From Pseudomonadota bacterium (GTDB lineage: Bacteria > Bdellovibrionota > FAC87 > UBA2466), in the NCBI GenBank assembly GCA_043718025.1, contig JAYSWN010000079.1:1-12012 (forward strand): a stretch of 12,012 nucleotides of DNA, read 5' to 3'. Under the pieces are notes generated by a model, which saw nothing but the letters and a program-made list of their open reading frames with translations, was not told where the DNA came from and made no database searches. Positions within the stretch are counted from its first letter, which is position 1, and each line of letters starts with the position of its first letter. Below are positions 395-11,945 of this stretch, in pieces. The translations under genes and the position numbers were made by a program.

Positions 395-1801
395 ATGAGC
401 GAATTAACCATGAGTTCCGCTAGTTTGGCTGAAAAAGCCGATTCAAAGTATCCACCGCAGATCAAGTACATTGTAGGCAACGAGGCGGCCGAGCGTTTTA
501 GTTATTACGGCATGAGGGCCATTTTGGTGGTCTTTATGGTGCAGTACTTGGGCATCGTTCAGCATGAAGCCAAAGGAATTTACCATCTCTTCATCAGTGC
601 CAATTACTTTCTGCCGTTGGTCGGCGGCTACCTTTCTGACCGGTTCTTAGGAAAGTACCGAACGATTATCTATCTTTCGGTGGTTTACTGTATGGGCCAT
701 CTGGTTCTCGCTCTGTTCGAAAGTAAGACCGGGATGTACTGCGGCCTCGGCCTTGTCGCGCTGGGCGCCGGCGGCATCAAGCCGTGCGTTTCGGCGCACG
801 TGGGTGATCAGTTTACGAAAAAGAATAGTCACCTGCTTAAGAGTATTTACGAAATTTTCTACTTCTCGATCAATTTCGGATCGTTCTTCTCTACCCTACT
901 TATCCCTTGGCTACTGCCCCGTTACGGATCAGGCGTGGCCTTTGGCATCCCCGGAATTTTGATGGCGGTGGCCACCCTGGTGTTTTGGATGGGGCGGCAT
1001 CAGTACGTGCACATTCCACCCGCGGGAAAAGCGAAGAGCAGTCAATTCTTCAATATCTTTTTTTACGGGCTATTTAATCTCGGCAAAAAAAATAAGGGTG
1101 AGTCGTTTCTTGAGGTCGCCAAAGCCAAATACCCAGTCGAAAAAGTTGAGGGGGCCAAGGCCGCGGTAGACGTGTTTAAGGTTTTGATCTCGGTATCCGC
1201 CTTTTGGGCGCTGTTTGAGCAGCATGGATCAAGTTGGGTGCTGCAGGCCAAGGCGATGGATTTAACTTTCTTGGGTACGAAGTGGGAGGCTTCGCAGATT
1301 CCGGCGTTGAATCCAATCATGGTCATGATCCTCATCCCCACGTTTAGTTATGGCATCTATCCGCTGATGGAACGACTTGGCGTAAAAATGACCCCGCTGC
1401 GCCGAATTGGCGGCGGCATGTTGTTGACCGGTTTGTCCTTTGTTTTTGCCGGCGCGGTGCAAGCGGCTTTAGAAGGTGGCGCGACGGTAAGCGTGGGTTG
1501 GCAGTTTCCCCAGTACATCATTTTAACGATGGCAGAAGTGATGGTGTCGATTACCGGACTAGAATTCGCCTACACGCAAGGCCCTCGCGCGATGAAAAGC
1601 ACGATTATGAGCTTGTGGCTACTCACGGTGACGGCGGGCAACTTGTTTACCGCGGCAATCGAGTTTCTGAACAAGTTCAGCGGATCGGCCCAGTTCTACT
1701 TTTTTGCGGTCGTGATGTTCGTGATTTCTCTAATTTTCGTGGTGATGGCGAGTCGCTATCAGTACCGAAATTACGTTGAAGACGACGCAGCCACGGCCTA
1801 A
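395..1801 (+). CDS. POT/PTR2-family proton-dependent oligopeptide transporter (MFS)
   Basis: 468 aa with many hydrophobic segments. Contains the POT ExxERFxYYG motif (EAAERFSYYG), GGYLSDRFLG in the TM2-3 loop, the PTR2 signature GAGGIKPCVSAHVGDQF, FYFSINFGS, and a C-terminal AEVMVSITGLEFAYTQGP. A start at 410 is also possible. Confidence 0.95.
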   Translation: MSELTMSSASLAEKADSKYPPQIKYIVGNEAAERFSYYGMRAILVVFMVQYLGIVQHEAKGIYHLFISANYFLPLVGGYLSDRFLGKYRTIIYLSVVYCMGHLVLALFESKTGMYCGLGLVALGAGGIKPCVSAHVGDQFTKKNSHLLKSIYEIFYFSINFGSFFSTLLIPWLLPRYGSGVAFGIPGILMAVATLVFWMGRHQYVHIPPAGKAKSSQFFNIFFYGLFNLGKKNKGESFLEVAKAKYPVEKVEGAKAAVDVFKVLISVSAFWALFEQHGSSWVLQAKAMDLTFLGTKWEASQIPALNPIMVMILIPTFSYGIYPLMERLGVKMTPLRRIGGGMLLTGLSFVFAGAVQAALEGGATVSVGWQFPQYIILTMAEVMVSITGLEFAYTQGPRAMKSTIMSLWLLTVTAGNLFTAAIEFLNKFSGSAQFYFFAVVMFVISLIFVVMASRYQYRNYVEDDAATA

Positions 1802-1865: not shown

Positions 1866-2387
1866 TTATTGTGGTTTCAAAATGCTGGGCAGGCGTGCGG
1901 CAATTCTATTAAGCTCGTAAGTGTTGCCTGCGATCACGACATCATTTCCCTTTAAATCCCATAGATGGCGCAAACAGACCGCGCGTACAGCGGTAACGGT
2001 AGTGTTGGACTCGGCGCACTGTTTAAAAAAACTGGCGGCAACTTCTGTGTTTTCCCCGCCTGCGCGGGCGAGATCCACCATTTTAGAAAAACTGTCTAGG
2101 CCGTCCATGAGGGCTGGCGGCGCATAGTGTCCGTTTCCTTGAACAGCAGCGCGGACCACCTCAGTGGAAGGCACTTCGGACATCGCGGCCTGCTTTAATA
2201 GCTGCGGCGTAGCGTGTTGAGCCATGGGATAAGTTTTGCGGCGAAGAGCGGGACGGCCCGGACGGCGAACGAGGCCGGGTGCCTTAACGTCGGGCCCGGC
2301 GGCGGGATTAATTTGTTCCCAAACGCACGAGTGTAGCGAGACGGCGATGAGGGTAAAACCAGCAAACACAAAAAAGGTAGATTTCAT
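1866..2387 (-). CDS. Hypothetical exported or membrane-anchored protein (173 aa), possible lipoprotein
   Basis: Start re-called at ATG 2387, which overlaps the upstream stop as ATGA (2387-2384). MKSTFFVFAGFTLIAVSLHSC is a signal/anchor with a weak lipobox. A Pro/Arg-rich linker follows, then a helical C-terminal part with two Cys (KQC...AVC). Confidence 0.75.
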   Translation of the reverse strand: MKSTFFVFAGFTLIAVSLHSCVWEQINPAAGPDVKAPGLVRRPGRPALRRKTYPMAQHATPQLLKQAAMSEVPSTEVVRAAVQGNGHYAPPALMDGLDSFSKMVDLARAGGENTEVAASFFKQCAESNTTVTAVRAVCLRHLWDLKGNDVVIAGNTYELNRIAARLPSILKPQ

Positions 2388-3313
2388 CGGGTAAATCCTT
2401 CTGGGCGGTCGTCTTGGGATTCGGCATTGGGCAGTACTCGCGACTCGTAGTCCGCTTGTAGGCGCATCATGCCGTCGATATCTTTCGTGCTGCAGCTGGT
2501 ACAAGCCTCGATAAATTTTTTGGTGATGGTGGCCTGAACTGAATAAGGCCCGTTTGAGTATATCTCGCAGGCCGCATGGTCTTTATAGGTGCCGCTGGTG
2601 CAAACTTCGTGGGGGAATGCCGCGTGCTTGCCGTGTCCATCGGAGTGTCGGGCTTCGTGCATCATTACGGCGAGTCGCAAAAGGGAATTGACCATCGAGC
2701 CGGTTTCAGAGCCGGGAATCTTATTGGCGGTGAAAAGACCTTCGCCGACCTGAATGATACCGTCGCGCGGGGAGTTGATCGAAAGATCACTGCCGAAAAC
2801 GTTGATCGTGATCAATTCCGAATCGGGGCGAGAAATTAAATAGAGGTAGGCACCTACATTGGTCATGACGGTGACCACTTCAGAGAGCTGTTGAGGTTTA
2901 ACCGGATAGGTATGTCCGACGCCGCGGTTGCCTAAGGAAGCATAAACCGTGGTTTTTTTGCTGTCGCGTTTGGAGACGGTTGGGTTTTTGTAGTCGTATT
3001 TTTCGCCGACCAAATACCTGACCCTGGTCTTCATGTACTGCACGAGGCTGGTTCCGGAAAATTCTTTAATACCAACGGTGCAACTGTCTTCAGTATTTTC
3101 GGAGAGGTTCACTCTGCCGAGAAGGGCGAGATCTTTTTTCAGTTGACTCTGTTGTTCTGGTGGGACCGTCGAGTCCATATAAATGTCGGAGGCATCGGCA
3201 TTTGAGCCGAAGCTCTGGAGGGCCGCGGGCTCATAGCAGTTTTTTTTTCCGCAGCCGGTCAACGCCAATACGGCGAGAGATAATAAAATTAACGAGCGCA
3301 ACATTTTCCACAT
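2384..3313 (-). CDS. Lipoprotein with a HExxH zinc-metallopeptidase (zincin)-like motif
   Basis: Signal peptide with a clear lipobox (MWKMLRSLILLSLAVLALTG-C). LAVMMHEARHSDGHGKHAAFPH gives HExxH after a hydrophobic helix plus further His. Six additional Cys. Start is either ATG 3313 or ATG 3304 rather than the TTG at 3328. Confidence 0.8.
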   Translation of the reverse strand: MWKMLRSLILLSLAVLALTGCGKKNCYEPAALQSFGSNADASDIYMDSTVPPEQQSQLKKDLALLGRVNLSENTEDSCTVGIKEFSGTSLVQYMKTRVRYLVGEKYDYKNPTVSKRDSKKTTVYASLGNRGVGHTYPVKPQQLSEVVTVMTNVGAYLYLISRPDSELITINVFGSDLSINSPRDGIIQVGEGLFTANKIPGSETGSMVNSLLRLAVMMHEARHSDGHGKHAAFPHEVCTSGTYKDHAACEIYSNGPYSVQATITKKFIEACTSCSTKDIDGMMRLQADYESRVLPNAESQDDRPEGFTR

Positions 3314-3574: not shown

Positions 3575-3865
3575 CTAGCGGCCGATGCGAATAATCGGAG
3601 TGTCGCCGGCGCTACGGCGATCGTAGAGTTTTGGGCGGGTAGGGGTGGTGGGGCCGAGTTGCCCTGGGTTTTTCTTTTCCTTAGCGAGCTTGGTCTGGGT
3701 TGCGGCTGAGGACTCCGCATTTTTCTGATTGCGCTCATCGACCCACTTTAGCCACGCTTCGTGGGTCATTCCGGGAGGGTCGAACTGGCAGGCTAGCAAA
3801 GGCCCGGCGGCGCCAATCGCCGCCACGGCTAGCAGGCTAAGGCCTAATTGACTTAAGCGTTTCAT
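3575..3865 (-). CDS. Small hypothetical exported protein (96 aa), possible lipoprotein
   Basis: Start re-called at ATG 3865. MKRLSQLGLSLLAVAAIGAAGPLLA-C is a signal peptide with an LLAC lipobox, followed by a short helix and a low-complexity basic tail. Confidence 0.7.
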   Translation of the reverse strand: MKRLSQLGLSLLAVAAIGAAGPLLACQFDPPGMTHEAWLKWVDERNQKNAESSAATQTKLAKEKKNPGQLGPTTPTRPKLYDRRSAGDTPIIRIGR

Positions 3866-4188: not shown

Positions 4189-4824
4189 ATGCGGGCTAAT
4201 CAGTTTAAAGCGAAAAAAATCAGATTGCGAATCCTTGGCGCCATCTCCAGTTTGGTGATCGGTCTGTTTTACGTCACCGGTTGCGGCCGCGAGGCCAAGA
4301 TAAACCTCATCGATAACTACAAACCCACGCCGGTAGTGCTGGCCGCTCCTGAAAATTCAATTCGCCAATCTAATAATGGTGGTTTTTCAACCGACCTCAA
4401 TAAGGCCGAGGCTTCGCTTCAAGTGAGCCCGATCGACGACCCTAGCACCTTCGCCGAAGTGGCTTTTGTTACCGCTGACGTTTTGGAATGCAGCGCCAAA
4501 CACAAATCAGAACATTTAATTGAAGTAAGCTTGCGCTTTTCGAGCGTCGGTAAAGGATCAGTTGGCGTGGTCTACACTTCAGAAGTCGATCGCGGCAACT
4601 CAGCGATTCAGTACTTTGCCTCGAAGGAAATAAAACGCGTCGCCTACCAAGATTCAGGACGCCGAAACTTTACGGCTACTACCGATGCAACCGTTTGCAG
4701 TTTTAAAACCGCCCTGGTCCAGGGAAAAGAAGTGAGGGCGTTCATGAACTGCTCTCTACGGGGCGTTACCGAAAACATTCACCTTAACGGATACTTTTCT
4801 TGCCAAGTTTTAGGAGCCATCTAA
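4189..4824 (+). CDS. Hypothetical lipoprotein (211 aa), beta-rich with four extra Cys
   Basis: Basic N-terminus, hydrophobic core and lipobox VTG-C. The mature part has alternating beta-strand patterns and four Cys. Its TAA overlaps the next ATG (TAATG, 4822-4826). Confidence 0.8.
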   Translation: MRANQFKAKKIRLRILGAISSLVIGLFYVTGCGREAKINLIDNYKPTPVVLAAPENSIRQSNNGGFSTDLNKAEASLQVSPIDDPSTFAEVAFVTADVLECSAKHKSEHLIEVSLRFSSVGKGSVGVVYTSEVDRGNSAIQYFASKEIKRVAYQDSGRRNFTATTDATVCSFKTALVQGKEVRAFMNCSLRGVTENIHLNGYFSCQVLGAI

Positions 4825-6338
4825 TGAAAAAACTACTCGCCGGCGTTGGTGTACTCACCCTTATTCTCGTAATCAGCTGCGGAAAGGAAAAGGAAGTACG
4901 TCCTTACAATGGTCACTTCGTCACCGCCGTTAGCCTTCATCCGGAGCTCGTGAAGAGCTTGGTAGCGGAGAAGCAGTTTGACCCCTCTCAAAACTGCGTG
5001 CAATTGGTCGAGTACTCGCGCACTCCGAACAAATCAAGCCGCTCTGACTTCTACTTGCTCTTTAGCCCCAATGCCTGCCCGGCGAATAACGAAACTGTCG
5101 AACAGTTTGCCTTCGCCTCGGAAGTTCAGGGTCTTGAGCAAAAGGCTAACTCGATGCGCCTGTTCAACCGTTTGAATGAGCTGGTGGCCTTCAATGCCGT
5201 TCGTCCTGAGGTGTTGTCGGGTTGGTTAGAACGTAAAGTGGAAAACGATAAAGTTTCTGGTTATTTCGTTTCTGAAATCTGCAATTTTTCTATCATTCCT
5301 AAAACGACGAGCATCTCGGGCTGTGAACTACGAATTGAAAATGGCCGTTTCGCCATCCCGCGCGACACCTCGTTGACCGCTAAGCACGATCAAGATGAGC
5401 GAACTGCCCTTGATCAGCAGCGCACTTCGAAGGCCGCCGCCGATGAGAGCCGCGAAGACGTGATTGCGCACTCCAACGCGCTCCATGACGTGCAGGTAAA
5501 TCTTATTAATCAACGTTTCACCGAATTGAGCAATTACTTGGTGAAGTCGTTCGGCGATGTAAACCAAAACATCGATACCACTCGTACTGAAATTCAAAAA
5601 CAGATTAAACGTTTGGATAAAAAGATTGCTAAACAGTTTTGGGCTCAACTCAAACGCTTGAACGAGGTTGAAAAGAAAGTGCTCACTGACCTCTCGAAAA
5701 AGATTGAAGATGAGGCTAAGGCCACCAACACCTTGGTGTTGGCGCTCAAAGATGATGTGAAAGCGCTGGACGACAAAGTGGATAAGAACAACAAAGAGCA
5801 AGTGGCAACTCTCGATAAGTTGAAAACTGCGCTCGATGGCCTGTCGACGGCGGTGGGCGACGTGCGAAATGACATCGCCAAGGCGGTGGGTGACGTGCGA
5901 AATGACATCAACGCTTCAACTTTGGTCATTACCAAGTTGATGACCTTGGAAATGTGGATGACCAACCTAAATATCAATTTGGTCCGCCTTGGCCAGAAAG
6001 ACATGGCTAAAAAAGTGGACGCCCGCATTAAAGAACTACAAGCCTCTTCTGCCGAAGAGACTAAACGCGCCTTGGCACGGACTAGCGCCCATTTTGACCT
6101 TTTTAAGATGATTGAAACCGAGTTGGAAAAGCTCGGGGATAGCCGCGTTAAGAATGCGCTGAGCGAGCTAAAGAGGTCGAATTCGACTTACCAAAAACAG
6201 ATTGCCGATCTGACGAAGGCGGTTGAGGCATTGGATAAGAAAGAGGTAGCGCCTCTTCCTCGTGAAGTGCCGCAAGAATTGCCGCCCGCAATTCCGCCCG
6301 CAATTCCGAAGGATGAAGAGATTCCGCAAACCAAATAA
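4824..6338 (+). CDS. Hypothetical lipoprotein (504 aa): N-terminal globular domain, long coiled-coil/amphipathic helical region, Pro-rich tail
   Basis: Start re-called at ATG 4824 (RBS AGGAG at 4812-4816). MKKLLAGVGVLTLILVIS-C lipobox, four Cys in the N-domain, roughly 300 aa of K/E/L/A-rich helix, and the tail PLPREVPQELPPAIPPAIP. Confidence 0.85.
   Translation: MKKLLAGVGVLTLILVISCGKEKEVRPYNGHFVTAVSLHPELVKSLVAEKQFDPSQNCVQLVEYSRTPNKSSRSDFYLLFSPNACPANNETVEQFAFASEVQGLEQKANSMRLFNRLNELVAFNAVRPEVLSGWLERKVENDKVSGYFVSEICNFSIIPKTTSISGCELRIENGRFAIPRDTSLTAKHDQDERTALDQQRTSKAAADESREDVIAHSNALHDVQVNLINQRFTELSNYLVKSFGDVNQNIDTTRTEIQKQIKRLDKKIAKQFWAQLKRLNEVEKKVLTDLSKKIEDEAKATNTLVLALKDDVKALDDKVDKNNKEQVATLDKLKTALDGLSTAVGDVRNDIAKAVGDVRNDINASTLVITKLMTLEMWMTNLNINLVRLGQKDMAKKVDARIKELQASSAEETKRALARTSAHFDLFKMIETELEKLGDSRVKNALSELKRSNSTYQKQIADLTKAVEALDKKEVAPLPREVPQELPPAIPPAIPKDEEIPQTK
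5849..5909 (+). repeat. 33-bp-period intragenic tandem duplication (AVGDVRNDI x2)
   Basis: GGCGGTGGGCGACGTGCGAAATGACATC (5849-5876) and GGCGGTGGGTGACGTGCGAAATGACATC (5882-5909) are 27/28 identical, with a period of 33 nt (11 codons). Confidence 0.95.
6282..6308 (+). repeat. 12-bp intragenic tandem repeat (PPAI x2)
   Basis: CCGCCCGCAATT x2 plus CCG, in frame in the Pro-rich tail. Confidence 0.9.
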
Positions 6339-6358
6339 AGCAATCATCAACAACTTGA

Positions 6359-6383
6359 TGTGGGTACCGTAAAGGTGCCCACA
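6359..6383 (+). other. Intercistronic RNA stem-loop without a U-tract
   Basis: TGTGGGTACC-gtaaa-GGTGCCCACA forms a 10-bp stem with one U-G wobble in the 67-nt gap between the lipoprotein genes and the barrel gene. Confidence 0.6.
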
Positions 6384-6405
6384 CCGTATAAAGGGGCCTT
6401 AGGCC

Positions 6406-7017
6406 ATGAAGTTTTCGTTCTTTCTCATTTCACTGATTACGCTTGGGCTGCAGACGGTAGCCTTTGCGGATCCCACTTCCGAGCAGCTTTACTACGAGTT
6501 GGATCGTACGTTTCCCAAGAAGCCATGGCAGGCAGATCTTGCTTTTGCTTATGATTTTAATAATCCGTTTATCAGCGTGCTAGGCATCCAGGCTGGGCTA
6601 TCTCGGTCGGTAAGCCCTTTCTTGAATGTCGGCGTAACCGGCGACTTCTTTTCCACCACTCCAAAGCAGATTGCCAGTGTGATAGACGCGCAGCTGACTC
6701 GTCATAATGAAACGCTAACCGTTGAAAAACCTGAGTTCGTGGTGGCCGCGCAGGCAAAGCTCATTCCGTTAATGGGTTACATCAATCTGTTTTCAAAAGA
6801 CGTTTTAAATACTGAAATCGGTCCGGTGCTGCGCGCCGGGGTGTCGAAATACCAGGGGCGCGACTTGGGGCCGTTGTTTGGCATCGGCATGGACGTGAAC
6901 ATGGAATCACGCTCGGGTTTTGGGATGCACTTTTCGGTGATTGCCGACTGGGAAAAAGTGAATGGCGAGTTTATGTCGCGCATCGGCATTCGCGTGGGCC
7001 CCTCACTTAGGTTTTAA
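6406..7017 (+). CDS. Small outer-membrane beta-barrel protein, GltA/GltB-like (myxobacterial/Bdellovibrio OMP family)
   Basis: Sec signal ending AFA-D, alternating amphipathic strands, and a terminal Phe (RIGIRVGPSLRF). NNPF..LG and KLIPLMGYINLFSKDVLNTE resemble the N-D-P-F and W-x-P-x-Y-G-K-x-x-x-F blocks I recall for GltA/B-type barrels. Confidence 0.75.
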   Translation: MKFSFFLISLITLGLQTVAFADPTSEQLYYELDRTFPKKPWQADLAFAYDFNNPFISVLGIQAGLSRSVSPFLNVGVTGDFFSTTPKQIASVIDAQLTRHNETLTVEKPEFVVAAQAKLIPLMGYINLFSKDVLNTEIGPVLRAGVSKYQGRDLGPLFGIGMDVNMESRSGFGMHFSVIADWEKVNGEFMSRIGIRVGPSLRF

Positions 7018-7515
7018 ATGAAATACTTCATCTTTACATTCATCTTGCTCGCAACTTTGGCCCAGGGCGAAGACTCGACTCCGGCGGCAAAGTTGTTACC
7101 TGAATTGACCCAGCGCTACTCGCAAAAACGTTGGTCTGAGTTTTTCGGCTTGGCCTGGTACTTGCGCAAGACCTCAACCGATGCCGAACTGGTGAAGAAG
7201 ATCGCAACTTTGGAGTCGATTGCGTTGGTACGCCACTGCCAAACCGATCTCGCCAAGACCATGTTACCCAATTTGAAGAATCAGAAGAGCGAAGTCTTTC
7301 AACGAACGGGCCGTTTCGTTGAAAAATGGGTGGAATTAACCATCGACACGACGCTTAAGAAAAACACCGACGACAGCAATTCTTTTAAGGGTGGCGTTTT
7401 CAAACCGACCGAGCTTCTTCCCTTTGCGCCGAACCCAAATGACCTCTCAAATTTAGAGCCGTTGCGGATTCGACGACCGCTGAAAGACCTGTGCGACGAG
7501 GAGATTGCGCCATGA
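7018..7515 (+). CDS. Hypothetical secreted protein (165 aa), helical and weakly TPR-like
   Basis: Signal peptide MKYFIFTFILLATLAQG, a helical N-half and two Cys. It abuts the upstream stop (TAAATG) and overlaps the downstream start (ATGA). Confidence 0.75.
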   Translation: MKYFIFTFILLATLAQGEDSTPAAKLLPELTQRYSQKRWSEFFGLAWYLRKTSTDAELVKKIATLESIALVRHCQTDLAKTMLPNLKNQKSEVFQRTGRFVEKWVELTIDTTLKKNTDDSNSFKGGVFKPTELLPFAPNPNDLSNLEPLRIRRPLKDLCDEEIAP

Positions 7516-9785
7516 GTAAACTAAGCTTTCTCCTGCTAGCCGTTGTCTTCATCGCCTCGACGCTCAACGCCAATCCCTACGAATCCACTCTCACCGAGGC
7601 CTCACGGGTGATGAAAAAAACTAAAGGGGTTTCGGCTCCGATGATCTCTTCACTTCGCGCCATTATTGTGGCCAAAGACGCTACTCAGTTTCAAAAGTAT
7701 TTCGCCGCACACCTTATTTCATCGAGCGATACCTGCACTTCAAAACAGGTACAATTTTTGTGTCCTGAGGTCGAAACGCTTTTTCAAAACCGTATCGAAG
7801 TTGGAAAACTGCTTGGCAAAAAAGCCGCGTTCGGAGCGGCTCGGGTTCGCGGTGATTTCTATTTCGACAAAGGCAAGTTTGATCCAGCGGTGGAAGCCTA
7901 CGAATTTCTAACTTGGGCACCCGGTGGACAGCACGAGTACGCCATTTTGAAATTGGGCTGGTCGTACCTCAATAAAAAAGAGGCCAAGAAAGCTTTTGTG
8001 CTGTGGACGCTAGATTTAGGCAACACCCTTAAGGGCAGTCAGCCGCCGTCGCGAAATTTGGTGCACGGCTTAGGGCAAAGCTTCTCCGAGAATTTGGAAC
8101 GCTCGAATGATGATGTAAAAGCCATGAACGGCTTAAGTTTTAGCGCCGAAGATCGCGAGGCGCTTGCCGAAGGGCTTCTGGACGGCCTCTACTTCTTGAC
8201 CACCGCTGACATGAAGGCCAAATGGACCGATTCAATCCGCCAGCTTAAGATCTATCCGGTTCTGGTTCGCCACATGTTGGTTGATCGGGTGAACACCTTG
8301 CTCCCTAACTGTGATTACCTAGCTCTCGTAAATGATAAAAATGTGTTTTCGCAGCTGCCTCCTAGTAAAGATCTGCGGCCGGTGCTGAACCAGTGTGTGA
8401 CCCAGGTCAAGAAGACCGGCGACAAAGCCCTGATGGAAACCTTGGTCTCGATCTACGAAAACTCTGACTTGAGTAAAGTTGACCCGTACGTTGCCTTCGT
8501 CTTTTTCGCTGGCGTGGCCAACGACCCCGCCAAAGCTTGTCAGGTTGGCGTCTCGTGGGCTTTCCGCGAATCCGATCGCAAGCAGGTGGCATTGAAGGAG
8601 ACCTCCTCGGTTTGCAAAGCGGCGATCCGAAATGAAAATACGTTGACCAAGATCGTTGCTAAGACTGAGTCGTTGGTTAAGTCAGCCGATAGGGAGATGT
8701 TGGAGAATTCTGAAACTTCAGCCGTCGTTTTACTGGCTTTGATGATGGACGAACCGTTGTTTCATGCGGCCATGATGACTTCAGTGGCCAAGTTGCCCAA
8801 CGATTTTAAGCCCACCTTAGTGCCGACCCTTCTCGCTGAGCAGCTCGCGCGCTTAAAGCAATGGAACGCGGTCACCCAATTGAAGCAGACGTTAAAATTG
8901 GCCCACGAGCCTACTAAAAAAGGCACGATTTGGAGTTCGAGCACCCGTGCTTTGCTAATCGAGAAGATTCAGAAAAGTGAATTTTCGCAGACTCAGGATC
9001 TGATTTCCGAGCTTAATCTTTATGGCGATTTGAGTCAGGAAAATCTTGCCGTTCTATTGGAGTGGTCGCGTGTGTTCTACAACGATCACCAGGCAGAAGT
9101 GAGCGCAATGGTGACGCGGGTATCGCGTGCTTTAACTCTAGTGCCCAGCACCGAGCAATATCAGGTTTTGGTTGAGTTGATGCTGAATCTAAGACACGAC
9201 AAAGAGGTTTCGCGGCTGATTGAGAAGTTTGGCCTCGGTGCAAATTTTCATATGCACCCTGCCTTTGATGCGCAGCTTTTTGACCGGGTCCTTGAGAAAA
9301 GCATCGAAGTGAATCTGATAAAGGTGAAAAGTCCGCAGTACAAGAAATTGATCTTCTTGGCGCAGGCGTTGGCCAAAAGGTCAAAACTTTCGCCCGCCGA
9401 CTTCGACGTTAAAGGAAATTCTCCACTTCATGAAGAATTCGCTCTGGTAAAAAAAGTTTACGCAAAGAGTGACTTGGCCCACCAGGCAAAATTACTCTCT
9501 TTGGATAAGATCAGCCGCTGGGTAGATTTTTTACAAACCGTGAGCGTGGTTTCCAAACGTAAATGGGTCTCCTATCACCTGCTGCAGCAGAGCCTTTCGC
9601 AGTCAAAAGTGACTCTCGAGTTCATCGACGCCAATTTGGCTAAATTGCCGGCCGATAAAGACATTGCGCCGGAAGAGTGGGACAAGATTCTGGCCACCCT
9701 GCATCAGAAGGTTTCGGACGCTAAGGATCTGCTGAACGATCTTTCTGCGAAGGCCAAACAGACGGCCGAGAGGCAAGCACCATGA
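7512..9785 (+). CDS. Large periplasmic TPR/alpha-solenoid protein (757 aa), GltD/AgmU-like position
   Basis: Start re-called at ATG 7512 (RBS GAGGAG at 7498-7503, ATGA overlap). Signal MSKLSFLLLAVVFIASTLNA. TPR pair GDFYFDKGKFDPAVEAYE...EYAILKLGWSYLNKKEAKKAF. The rest appears all-helical. Confidence 0.8.
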   Translation: MSKLSFLLLAVVFIASTLNANPYESTLTEASRVMKKTKGVSAPMISSLRAIIVAKDATQFQKYFAAHLISSSDTCTSKQVQFLCPEVETLFQNRIEVGKLLGKKAAFGAARVRGDFYFDKGKFDPAVEAYEFLTWAPGGQHEYAILKLGWSYLNKKEAKKAFVLWTLDLGNTLKGSQPPSRNLVHGLGQSFSENLERSNDDVKAMNGLSFSAEDREALAEGLLDGLYFLTTADMKAKWTDSIRQLKIYPVLVRHMLVDRVNTLLPNCDYLALVNDKNVFSQLPPSKDLRPVLNQCVTQVKKTGDKALMETLVSIYENSDLSKVDPYVAFVFFAGVANDPAKACQVGVSWAFRESDRKQVALKETSSVCKAAIRNENTLTKIVAKTESLVKSADREMLENSETSAVVLLALMMDEPLFHAAMMTSVAKLPNDFKPTLVPTLLAEQLARLKQWNAVTQLKQTLKLAHEPTKKGTIWSSSTRALLIEKIQKSEFSQTQDLISELNLYGDLSQENLAVLLEWSRVFYNDHQAEVSAMVTRVSRALTLVPSTEQYQVLVELMLNLRHDKEVSRLIEKFGLGANFHMHPAFDAQLFDRVLEKSIEVNLIKVKSPQYKKLIFLAQALAKRSKLSPADFDVKGNSPLHEEFALVKKVYAKSDLAHQAKLLSLDKISRWVDFLQTVSVVSKRKWVSYHLLQQSLSQSKVTLEFIDANLAKLPADKDIAPEEWDKILATLHQKVSDAKDLLNDLSAKAKQTAERQAP

Positions 9786-10033
9786 GAATAGCAATCGCTC
9801 TTTTTCTTCTGTTTCAACTGGCATCGCACGCTGCCGAAGTGATTGACCTGGGTAAGGTCAACGTCGACGGCGCCGCGCGGGGCCCCGAGATTCAGATCAT
9901 CGGTGACGATCCCATCGCCAAAAAAGCATTGCGCAAAGCCATTGTGGATGAAGTTTCCAAGTCAGAAGCCGCGCTGCTCAAAGAGTTGAATGCGTACGGC
10001 AAGGTTACGAGCCGGGGAGTGATAGCGAAATGA
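9782..10033 (+). CDS. Small secreted protein, GltF/CglF-like (83 aa)
   Basis: Signal ending ASHA. VIDLGKVNVDGAARGPEIQII matches the I-D-hydrophobic-x-x-x-x-I/V-E/D-G-x4-P pattern I recall for GltF/CglF. It lies between the TPR gene and the TonB-like gene, as gltF does, with ATGA overlaps on both sides. Confidence 0.65.
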   Translation: MRIAIALFLLFQLASHAAEVIDLGKVNVDGAARGPEIQIIGDDPIAKKALRKAIVDEVSKSEAALLKELNAYGKVTSRGVIAK

Positions 10034-10851
10034 TAGCCTCTCGACTAAATAGCCCGTCGTTCGTCAAAGACGCAAAGTGGTTCGGAGTCTCTTTTGCGAT
10101 TCATCTTTCGCTGTTTGTTTTTCTGATGGTAATCAGCGGCACGCTCACCAAAAATGGTGGGTTCTTTTCGAACGCAAATTCAAAAAAGGTAGATCAGAAG
10201 AAATTAGAAGGGGGCGAGGTCATGGACTTTAGCCCTTACCTCGAAGAGGTACATCTGTTCGACGGCCTTTCCTACACCGACTACCGCAATAATAAACTTC
10301 GCAAAGCCCAAGCTCAGTCGCAGGCTAACTCGGTGTTGAACAAGCTGCGCGGCCTAAAAATCCCTTCGGGCACGTCAGGCGGCGCGGTCGGTGGCCTTGC
10401 GGCGGGAAAAGCGCAAGTGGGCGGTGGTTCACTGTTGGGCACGGGCGAACAGGCGGGCTCCGATTCGGCCCTTTTGGATAACTTGAGAAAACAACCATTC
10501 ACCTTTAAAGCGTCTTTACCGGGCGCCACCTCGGCAGGGGCGGGACGATCCATTTCGGACAAAGAGCGGGCCGAGATACGTAAAAAGTTTAATGAGCTGC
10601 AACAGTCCTTTAGAAAAGTGTACGCCAAAGGGTTGATGATCGATCCGCACCTTGAGGCCACGGTTGGTTTTGAAGCCCAGGTTAAGAATGACGGCTTCTT
10701 ACAAGTGATTCGTTTTCGTACTCGGGGGAAATTTAAGGAAGATTCCATCGAGCTGATGAAACGGGAGATGGAAAAATTGATTGCTCAACTATCAATTTCT
10801 CCCGATCTCGCCGGTACCGTAATTAGGGGCGAGAGCGTTTTCGCGCGTTGA
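10030..10851 (+). CDS. TonB/TolA-like energy transducer with AgmX/PglI-like (GltG/GltJ-type) C-terminal domain
   Basis: Single N-terminal TM with S21-H25-L32-S36, the same +4/+7/+4 spacing as the TonB/TolA SHLS motif. Gly-rich linker. The C-terminal IRKKFNELQQSFRKVYAKGLMIDPHLEATVGFEAQVKNDG resembles the TonB_C-fold AgmX/PglI domain. Directly upstream of ExbB/ExbD homologues. Confidence 0.8.
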   Translation: MIASRLNSPSFVKDAKWFGVSFAIHLSLFVFLMVISGTLTKNGGFFSNANSKKVDQKKLEGGEVMDFSPYLEEVHLFDGLSYTDYRNNKLRKAQAQSQANSVLNKLRGLKIPSGTSGGAVGGLAAGKAQVGGGSLLGTGEQAGSDSALLDNLRKQPFTFKASLPGATSAGAGRSISDKERAEIRKKFNELQQSFRKVYAKGLMIDPHLEATVGFEAQVKNDGFLQVIRFRTRGKFKEDSIELMKREMEKLIAQLSISPDLAGTVIRGESVFAR

Positions 10852-10876
10852 TATTTCTAACTTTTAGGAGATCCAC

Positions 10877-11509
10877 ATGATTCACAAAATGTTTCAAATC
10901 TTTAACTGGGCCGGCGCCGAATGGGTGATGTACTCACTCGTCGTTTTAAGCATCGTGGTGATGTCCATCGTGCTGAAACGATATATGGAACTGGCCCGCA
11001 TCAAGTCGCAGAGCGACCAATTCTGGTTGGCCATGGGCGACAAGTGGTTACAGGGCAAAGAGCTGTCAAAATGGAGTACGCAAGTCTCCGTGGCCACCGC
11101 GAAGTACCCCTCGCTAGAAGCGGAAACTTTAGTGGCCTTGCAGCACGCGGCGAATGAAAAGGCAGACTTAAATTCATTCGCCGAAGCCTACATCGAAAAT
11201 CGACGTATTGGGTTAGAGCGCTCGATTGGCGTATTGGGAACGATTGGGGCTAACGCCGCATTCATCGGTTTATTGGGAACGGTGCTGGGAATCATTCGTG
11301 CCTTCAATGACATTTCGACCAAAGGCTTGAGTGCCGGTGCCGAAACCGTAACTGGCGGTATTGCGGAAGCTCTCGTGGCTACCGCAGTGGGCCTGCTTGT
11401 AGCGATTCCGGCGGTAATATTTTTTAACCTGCTCAACCGTAAGATTCAGGTCGTGGTCCGCAAGGCCTACAACTTGAGCGCGTTGATCCAGTCGGTTGAA
11501 AAGAAGTAA
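10877..11509 (+). CDS. exbB: MotA/TolQ/ExbB proton-channel family protein
   Basis: Three TM segments, with LGTIGANAAFIGLLGTVLGIIRAF (TM2) and GIAEALVATAVGLLVAIPA (TM3) signatures. RBS AGGAG at 10866-10870. The symbol is family-level; tolQ/aglR cannot be excluded. Confidence 0.95.
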   Translation: MIHKMFQIFNWAGAEWVMYSLVVLSIVVMSIVLKRYMELARIKSQSDQFWLAMGDKWLQGKELSKWSTQVSVATAKYPSLEAETLVALQHAANEKADLNSFAEAYIENRRIGLERSIGVLGTIGANAAFIGLLGTVLGIIRAFNDISTKGLSAGAETVTGGIAEALVATAVGLLVAIPAVIFFNLLNRKIQVVVRKAYNLSALIQSVEKK

Positions 11510-11522
11510 GGGGAACCAACTT

Positions 11523-11945
11523 ATGGCAGGCAGTAATAAAAACGAAAGTTCAAACAGTGGATTTGCCGAGATCAACATTACCCCTTTTGTGGACGTGATG
11601 TTGGTGCTGCTAATCACCGTGATGATTTCGACCCCGGCCTTGGTCTACAAGGGGATGAGAATCTCTCTTCCCAAGGTAAAGCAGGCCGAGGACGTCACCC
11701 ACATTACGTTGAGTTTCAATCTCGATAAAACGGGTAAGCTCACTCTTGACGACAAAACGGTTACGATTGACGAAGTCACCAAAATCTACGAAGAGCTTGG
11801 CGAAAATAAATCGGCCAGCGACGCTATTTTGCTTGCTGATCGTGACGTGCCGCACGGCATGGTGATTGAGCTGGCGGATCGTTTACGCACGCTTGGTATT
11901 CAACAAATTGGGTTTGGCGTGCATAAGGTTGGCGTGTCTAAGTAA
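11523..11945 (+). CDS. exbD: ExbD/TolR biopolymer transport protein
   Basis: Start re-called at ATG 11523. EINITPFVDVMLVLL contains the essential TM Asp (D24), followed by SLPK and LLADRDVPHGMV...LG in the periplasmic domain. The symbol is family-level. Confidence 0.95.
   Translation: MAGSNKNESSNSGFAEINITPFVDVMLVLLITVMISTPALVYKGMRISLPKVKQAEDVTHITLSFNLDKTGKLTLDDKTVTIDEVTKIYEELGENKSASDAILLADRDVPHGMVIELADRLRTLGIQQIGFGVHKVGVSK

Follow-up and report, generated by a model that had tools for sequence, protein, structure and literature searches.

A compact Glt-type chain with a Ton-type proton motor and variable exported neighbours in a Bdellovibrionota genome

The 12,012-nt window analyzed here is a complete contig (JAYSWN010000079.1; C211 in our analysis) of a 4.14-Mb, 92%-complete Bdellovibrionota genome (GCA_043718025.1; G000), and our subject is a run of nine genes, A to I (Table 1), that closes 67 bases before the sequence ends. 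Judged from profile and tree comparisons, its seven-gene core C–I (about 5.5 kb, hereafter the cassette) appears to join divergent homologues of GltA/B, GltC, GltD, GltF and the GltG tail, in the order of Agl-Glt clusters, to an ExbB/ExbD pair that falls outside the AglRQS clade and is of Ton type. The best explanation we can offer, at about an even chance, is that C–I make up a minimal Glt-type chain with a Ton-type proton motor and serve as a powered platform that docks and displays interchangeable, co-encoded exported clients; past homology, motor identity and gene context, every step of this explanation is one that we infer. Because the exported neighbours change from genome to genome, the machine likely anchors or presents surface proteins rather than moving the cell.

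Both the co-orientation of the nine genes and the five overlapping or abutting junctions described in a sequence-only reading of the window were reproduced from the coordinates of the open reading frames (ORFs), with successive gaps from A through I of -1, 67, 0, -4, -4, -4, 25 and 13 nt. A genome of the same genus (G002) carries intact orthologues of all nine in identical order at 49-89% identity, with mismatches in every gene of 0.43-0.63 at third codon positions and 0.06-0.28 at second positions; all nine genes are real and under purifying selection. Pfam and NCBIfam scans of the window proteins scored only H (MotA_ExbB, 4.9e-29) and I (ExbD, 6.6e-22) above cut-off, returned nothing above cut-off for A–G, and found no peptidoglycan-binding domain in any part. 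The lipoboxes of A and B, the barrel of C, the SHLS motif of G and the family matches of H and I bear out the earlier description of envelope-spanning parts, and, as that description also stated, the window has neither a TonB-dependent receptor nor tolB/pal; this genome keeps its Ton locus on C27 and its Tol locus on C64. A promoter and terminator scan of the locus gave chance-level results only. The hairpin between B and C (z -3.39) has a counterpart of other sequence in G002 at the corresponding position (z -3.41) and may act as an mRNA stabilizer or attenuator. A second ExbD hidden beyond the contig end was considered and rejected, because G002, where a single ExbD is followed by an unrelated gene, and 13 other loci carry just one.

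Table 1. Features of the nine-gene run (window positions) and, in the last row, of the P1-P5 operon at the second cassette of the same genome (locus positions)
Feature	Position	Strand	Description
A	4189-4824	+	211-amino-acid (aa) lipoprotein, no known family; variable front gene
B	4824-6338	+	504-aa lipoprotein, coiled coil
Stem-loop	6360-6382	+	9-bp stem, no U-tail; separates the core from the variable genes
C	6406-7017	+	8-stranded outer-membrane barrel, divergent GltA/GltB (OMP_myx_plus-like)
D	7018-7515	+	165-aa exported helical protein, probable mini-GltC
E	7512-9785	+	757-aa exported helical scaffold, GltD-like
F	9782-10033	+	83-aa GltF/CglF-like miniprotein
G	10030-10851	+	Transducer: SHLS helix, Gly-rich linker, GltG-type C-terminal domain; no FHA
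H	10877-11509	+	ExbB/TolQ-family motor subunit
I	11523-11945	+	Single ExbD/TolR-family subunit
P1-P5 operon	L011:4658-14248		G000, contig C33; also L167, L170, L171, L172

For the Glt-type chain, alignments of C–G from about 20 loci were compared all-by-all in hhalign with six canonical families of 10-29 proteins each, which were anchored by NCBIfam matches (GltC, GltE, CglF, GltG and TIGR04565) or, for GltD, by position and size only. Best matches lay on the diagonal (C to GltA/B 99.3%, D to GltC 57%, E to GltD 95.5%, F to GltF 65%, G to GltG 96.9%), and off-diagonal probabilities were at most 13%, except for 36% between E and GltE. The canonical order is barrel, barrel, GltC, GltD, GltE, GltF, GltG, AglR, AglQ, AglS, and the cassette follows it but lacks GltE, one of the barrels and one ExbD. 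The kinship to Glt proteins proposed earlier for C, F and G was found in this comparison, as it was for D and E; the accompanying claim of TPR proteins held in part, D and E themselves matching no TPR model and their TPR/Glt nature being visible by profile comparison only. D aligned best with GltC among the six families (E 1e-4), at the right position and one third the length; its relatives share an invariant FF, E-x2-AL and two Cys, and 0 of 15 match the GltC model NF033756. E matched 11 proteins from the GltD position at 1.4e-8 over 239 columns, and 15 of its relatives matched no family. GltE is missing: E and F overlap at an ATGA, and neither here nor at the other mapped loci does a gene lie between them. 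F, an IDLG-x4-G-x2-R-x-P strand followed by a C-terminal helix, gave E 6e-5 against GltF, and 5 of 18 F-family members matched NF033764, all weakly and below cut-off. G itself matched NF033768 (E 0.006), as did 12 of 17 relatives, and NF033760 was matched by 8 of 17 relatives; G had no TonB_C match (PF03544, TIGR01352). Just 17 residues precede its helix, and G has no cytoplasmic FHA domain; 14 longer relatives carry an N-terminal region of ~100-170 aa that is unlike that of GltG (0.2%). A 77%-identical relative of G comes from a record titled Deltaproteobacteria bacterium. Fusions of D with E (L038:9200-11785; L162:9387-11372, the latter judged by length) and of E with F (L164:7466-9937) fit one complex.

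Barrel C, searched against 1.84 billion representatives, gave 74 matches, and TIGR04565, the model for GltA/B-type barrels, was matched by 55 of 71 aligned C-family members (best 3.7e-9), the single copy in the window staying below cut-off. Its structure is modelled as an 8-stranded OmpA-like barrel without a plug (pLDDT, the predicted local distance difference test score, 91; Z 16.5-17 to NspA/OmpA), and the family had no sequence match to any solved structure. Eight-stranded barrels of the OmpA type are too narrow to pass folded lipoproteins. Export of the two lipoproteins, which the sequence-only reading had put forward along with display, is therefore unlikely through C, and the barrel was rejected as an export pore in favour of docking or display.

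The motor was placed in a quick IQ-TREE phylogeny of 79 ExbB/TolQ proteins (from G000, ten searched genomes, fetched clusters and E. coli), alongside a FastTree tree of ExbD. All 27 two-ExbD motors formed one clade (support 99), TolQs formed another, and 13 of the 14 cassette ExbBs grouped together (98), nested in a larger group (98) that also contains stand-alone exbBD pairs and TonB/receptor-linked systems; every one of the 14 has a single ExbD. An approximately unbiased (AU) test, run under a simpler model on the 70 rows that stayed after removal of 5 long-branch and 4 near-duplicate ones, rejected joining cassette and AglR (p 0.0008), and AglR identity was discarded on the tree and this test. 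The motor thus clusters with receptor-linked Ton systems, a result that the sequence-only reading had listed as evidence against itself: of its label "Agl-Glt-like" the second half stands and the first falls, which makes the machine a chimera of Glt chain and Ton motor. The conserved channel and coupling residues S25, T135 and T169 of H and the proton-binding D24 of I are present, and the channel Asp/Thr set is intact. In G the motif is exact (S21-x3-H25-x6-L32-x3-S36), and 21 of 22 G proteins have SxxxH in this helix, against 0 of 15 canonical GltGs. The serine of the first transmembrane helix (TM1) of ExbB, which contacts the SHLS helix (PMC12905483), is found in 14 of 14 cassette ExbBs against 1 of 27 of AglR type; the TM1 Trp is missing from all 14 and from the AglR type. 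Motor genes follow G at 16 of the 23 loci found first and at 2 of the 20 found later, several contigs ending early, and the five genomes with motor-less cassettes in the tree all have a stand-alone exbBD of the larger group, as has the cassette-less G149. Stand-alone exbB-exbD pairs without a nearby TonB or receptor are common in the phylum (L127-L131, L134, L135, L137); three of them adjoin a sulfatase-family gene and FHA-like genes.

A motor clade that includes TonB/receptor-linked systems, together with the SHLS helix, would also suit energized uptake, in which lipoproteins would be lids that catch a substrate, and F, serving as a detachable TonB box, would let G pull on the barrel complex. 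The strand of F does resemble a TonB-box-type partner, and one sister locus (L036) encodes a further protein of 396 aa that may be a barrel, but C has eight strands and no plug, no metabolic genes cluster with the cassette and the neighbours resemble adhesins or toxins; we regard uptake as highly unlikely.

For the docking-and-display platform we envisage the following course. An H5-I2 complex would harvest protons and engage G through SHLS, by analogy with Ton/Tol structures (PMC12905483). The tail of G would bind the beta-strand of F, the helix of F and E would link to D, and D would clamp the periplasmic tail of C, all by analogy with the AlphaFold model of Agl-Glt, in which GltF connects GltC with the tail of GltG, GltC in turn clamps the tails of the barrels, and GltD is the scaffold (PMC11761067). 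The barrel would be a dock and not a pore, and gene context suggests that a cognate lipoprotein (A here; P1 at the toxin-operon loci described below) would bind it through a short strand behind the lipidated Cys. Motor strokes would then expose, hold, reposition or release the lipoprotein and its partners, the coiled-coil B in this window and Gly-rich, hydrophobic-hairpin and polymorphic-toxin-like proteins in sister loci. Since the cassette keeps the Agl-Glt force path and drops the FHA-platform and AglQ/S parts, it would be a locally acting proton-powered dock.

Lipoprotein A has the mature N-terminus C-GREAKINL, predicted to form a short beta-strand; it is the fastest-evolving of the nine (49% identity to G002), was present in 2 of the 401 genomes of the phylum that we sampled, and has only nameless neighbours in the Atlas. 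We consider it a putative client or barrel-docking partner. B, 63% identical to its G002 orthologue, consists of an N-terminal domain of ~180 aa with four conserved Cys, a coiled coil of ~280 aa and a Pro-rich tail, with a hydrophobic period of 3.6; its single-sequence model shows long helices at a low confidence (pLDDT 47) too poor for structure search, its best Atlas hit (0.79) offered no lead, and it is putatively a fibre-like client. A 33-nt tandem duplication (5836-5901; 11 residues) is missing in the B of G002, and coiled-coil length therefore varies.

Across the sample, D was found in 41 genomes (two of them weak matches) from about ten families, including 6 of 34 in the window's own family, G000 among them. 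G000 holds a second cassette (C33, L011) and has its canonical Glt, Ton and Tol loci elsewhere. Whether upstream genes vary among genomes, a check suggested by the sequence-only reading, was answered in the fetched loci: they do, the seven-gene core stays, and the neighbour families are mutually unrelated: A and B; a repeat lipoprotein (L009, L026, L141); the lipoproteins of L027, L028 and L030; and the P1 operon. By eye, a lipoprotein gene lies at most two genes from the cassette or barrel at about 18 of 23 first-found loci, against a genome-wide background of 5.8% lipoprotein genes, and a strict post-Cys beta-strand pattern fits 13 of 24 discovery lipoproteins against 16 of 200 background ones. 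One genome (G017, L026) has the lipoprotein-barrel pair twice in tandem, and L041:11213-12592 (minus strand) fuses lipoprotein and barrel in one ORF, possibly through an assembly or deletion artefact, its N-terminal part resembling P1 at 0.5% only; that locus also holds a 403-aa D/E hybrid. At L010:7311-8489 and L143:7782-8960 a 392-aa exported non-lipoprotein lies upstream of the barrel, with no Pfam match and a GTHSKG motif that we take to be catalase-like; genome G011, however, has P1 elsewhere. Another cassette copy (L035:15680-17941) stands directly upstream of phage-tail sheath/tube-like genes (PF04984). A metagenome scan with a narrow barrel alignment found nothing, viral contigs had no cassette match, and plasmids gave generic ExbB only.

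This distribution bears on two further alternatives. In an envelope-maintenance or tethering machine of Tol-like kind, A and B would be passengers or periplasmic anchors, and long coiled-coil lipoproteins can indeed span the periplasm. Family f11 has the core almost universally (12 of 14 genomes), among def, fmt, rpe and dxs-like genes and with no lipoprotein, and SHLS coupling is common to TolA. The patchy spread elsewhere, the complete Tol-Pal locus on C64, the lack of a peptidoglycan-binding domain and the co-occurrence with P1, which upkeep leaves unexplained, make this quite unlikely. At the f11 loci (L145-L158, L162) the core follows def-fmt-rpe in a housekeeping operon with a dxs-like gene as well, and no adjacent motor genes were seen. 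The other alternative, a gliding-motility machine, has in its favour five Glt genes recognizable by homology and order, and GltA/B/F have been proposed as marks of potential gliders (PMC3169522). The cassette, however, has no GltE, second barrel, FHA domain or AglQ/AglS pair, its motor is not AglR, D occurs in 0 of 53 genomes of f8, the family with Bdellovibrio-type clusters, and G000 has fuller Glt clusters elsewhere; the earlier judgement against gliding is upheld, and we hold this explanation to be the remotest of those weighed here.

One neighbour family is an operon of P1 (a lipoprotein of ~780 aa), the Gly-rich P2, P3 with a hydrophobic hairpin, P4 and P5 with a variable tail, then a small ORF. 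It lies beside the cassette at L011, L032/48, L039/45, L040/46, L043/47 and L166, and partly at L144, L151, L160, L161, L163 and L168; in split clusters the barrel gene stays beside it (L043, L037, L166, L168), and the strand after the lipid Cys is conserved among P1s. P5 has a conserved middle and variable tails with toxin-family matches (Ntox10 4e-6, ADP-ribosyl cyclase-like 5e-4 and, weakly, RES 0.044), each such tail being followed by a small unrelated ORF; tails matched a family in 3 of 5 cases in one scan and 0 of 4 in another, and P1-P4 and the P5 carrier matched no Pfam family. P1 was found in 22 of the 401 genomes, of which 21 have the cassette: 20 have D at E<=1e-5 (base rate 41/401), G170 has a divergent cassette beside P1, and the remaining genome, G391, is 86% complete. 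The operon is a candidate toxin-delivery system on these sequence features. At L048:15302-15919 an orphan ORF behind the small ORF repeats the tail of P5 (ADP-ribosyl cyclase-like, E 0.0066), in the manner of orphan toxin modules. A, B and P1 matched neither the lipoproteins of canonical clusters nor, as a family, the CglB and GltK models.

On this evidence the whole machine might be a contact-dependent attack or toxin-delivery apparatus that builds a surface structure and fires it at neighbours, with A/B an alternative payload and B a coiled-coil stalk or translocator. The operon next to many cassettes, the genome's own second copy included, its toxin-like tails, hairpin and Gly-rich stretch, and the tight co-occurrence of P1 all fit. 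Toxin and immunity genes, however, are absent from the window, B lacks a strong hydrophobic hairpin (0.88 against 1.75-2.76) and does not match P3 (1.8%), about half of the cassette genomes are without P1, and no family was found for 2 of 5 and 4 of 4 P5 tails scanned, so that we think it rather unlikely. A more inclusive idea is possible, at clearly less than even probability: a contact-dependent toxin-delivery and surface-display engine in which a Ton motor and SHLS helix are grafted on a miniaturized gliding chain and the barrel reads the post-lipid strand of interchangeable clients, from coiled-coil fibres to a five-protein polymorphic-toxin injector.

Several results weigh against the docking-and-display platform. 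In a fresh test of 20 loci a lipoprotein lay within about three genes in just 8, and 10 of the 12 f11 loci, some on contigs that end early, show none, with the core among housekeeping genes. A lipoprotein also stands beside the barrel in a canonical cluster (L058-L060), so that this arrangement is not special to the cassette variant. The strict strand pattern failed its fresh test (1 of 9), and a relaxed pattern devised post hoc fitted 5 of 9 fresh lipoproteins against 51 of 200 background ones. Profile comparison found no detectable kinship of A and B to P1-P5. Related genomes are not independent, and 8 of the 22 P1 genomes had seeded the profile. The homology comparison used the six canonical families described above, the M. 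xanthus proteins themselves lying outside it, and the profile matches of D and F are modest. SxxxH is kept in just 1 of 12 G proteins of a more divergent set, most of which keep the His alone, and adjacent motor genes are absent from 7 of 23 and 18 of 20 loci.

The remainder of the window holds a 306-aa predicted lipoprotein (2384-3304, minus strand), divergent from the operon, with a HEARH (HExxH) motif; possibly a zinc protease, it has no Pfam/NCBIfam match and is not at this place in G002. Two short exported-looking ORFs (3575-3865 and 1866-2387, both minus strand) have no family matches and no paralogues in the genome, and an ordinary POT/PTR2 peptide transporter (395-1801, plus strand; 1.5e-84) is followed by a terminator-like hairpin and T-run at 1820-1850.

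A full-text literature search, with most subscription papers outside its coverage, found neither the cassette with one barrel and one ExbD nor the P1-P5 operon described. Re-specialized Agl-Glt-like machines, protein cargo included, were predicted in PMC3858216, and the kind of machine is accordingly already known; the suggestion that the combination is undescribed therefore holds for the cassette and not for the type, and as far as we found, what is new is the exchanged motor, the reduced chain and the client operons. What Agl-Glt-like cores do beyond gliding and sporulation has been an open question since 2011 (PMC3169522). The cassette, at seven genes the smallest such version encountered in this analysis, shows that a Ton-type motor can take over a Glt chain, the two sides of the coupling interface having changed to match. 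It would make a compact system for rebuilding force transfer from motor to outer membrane in a heterologous host, and through its tight linkage with an uncharacterized toxin-like operon it may indicate a new secretion or display route in a phylum of bacterial predators.

The closest known system is Agl-Glt of M. xanthus and of the Bdellovibrio Bd0828-0838 type (PMC3169522, PMC2797640), with the same barrel-GltC-GltD-GltF-GltG order and then an ExbB/ExbD-family motor. Many complete 3-4 Mb genomes of the phylum carry the two-barrel glt-aglRQS cluster, and in our reference cluster (L051) the AglR/Q/S-like proteins of 221, 158 and 196 aa have the sizes listed for Bd0836-0838 (PMC3169522 supplement). 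By comparison, the cassette has one barrel instead of two, a D of 165 aa against ~520 for GltC, an E of 757 against ~1070 aa for GltD, no GltE, a G with SHLS and without FHA, one ExbD, a motor placed outside the AglR clade, and variable putative clients. In the GltABCHK-CglB platform small barrels dock a lipoprotein: the first strand of CglB (residues 4-9) is modelled on the GltA/B barrels (PMC11761067), and in experiments these retain and expose CglB, with no export of it (PMC9946355). Many cassette-linked lipoproteins have a strand at the place of the CglB strand; A, B and P1, however, do not match CglB or GltK, the strand motif replicated weakly, and docking is here what we infer. The Agl-Nfs spore-coat machine (PMC3858216) is a precedent for Glt paralogues re-specialized to other surface cargo, yet Nfs borrows the same Agl motor, whereas the cassette recruits a Ton-type motor that is often co-encoded. 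With polymorphic toxin systems, in which a conserved carrier bears a variable toxic tail and an immunity gene is adjacent, P5 and its small ORF share this layout, although only in sister loci and with carriers outside Pfam. With Ton and Tol systems the cassette has in common the single ExbD, the channel Asp/Thr, the TM1 Ser and the SHLS helix (PMC12905483); it differs from them in a G tail of GltG type rather than TonB_C or TolA, in having no receptor, TolB or Pal in the window, and in the missing TM1 Trp.

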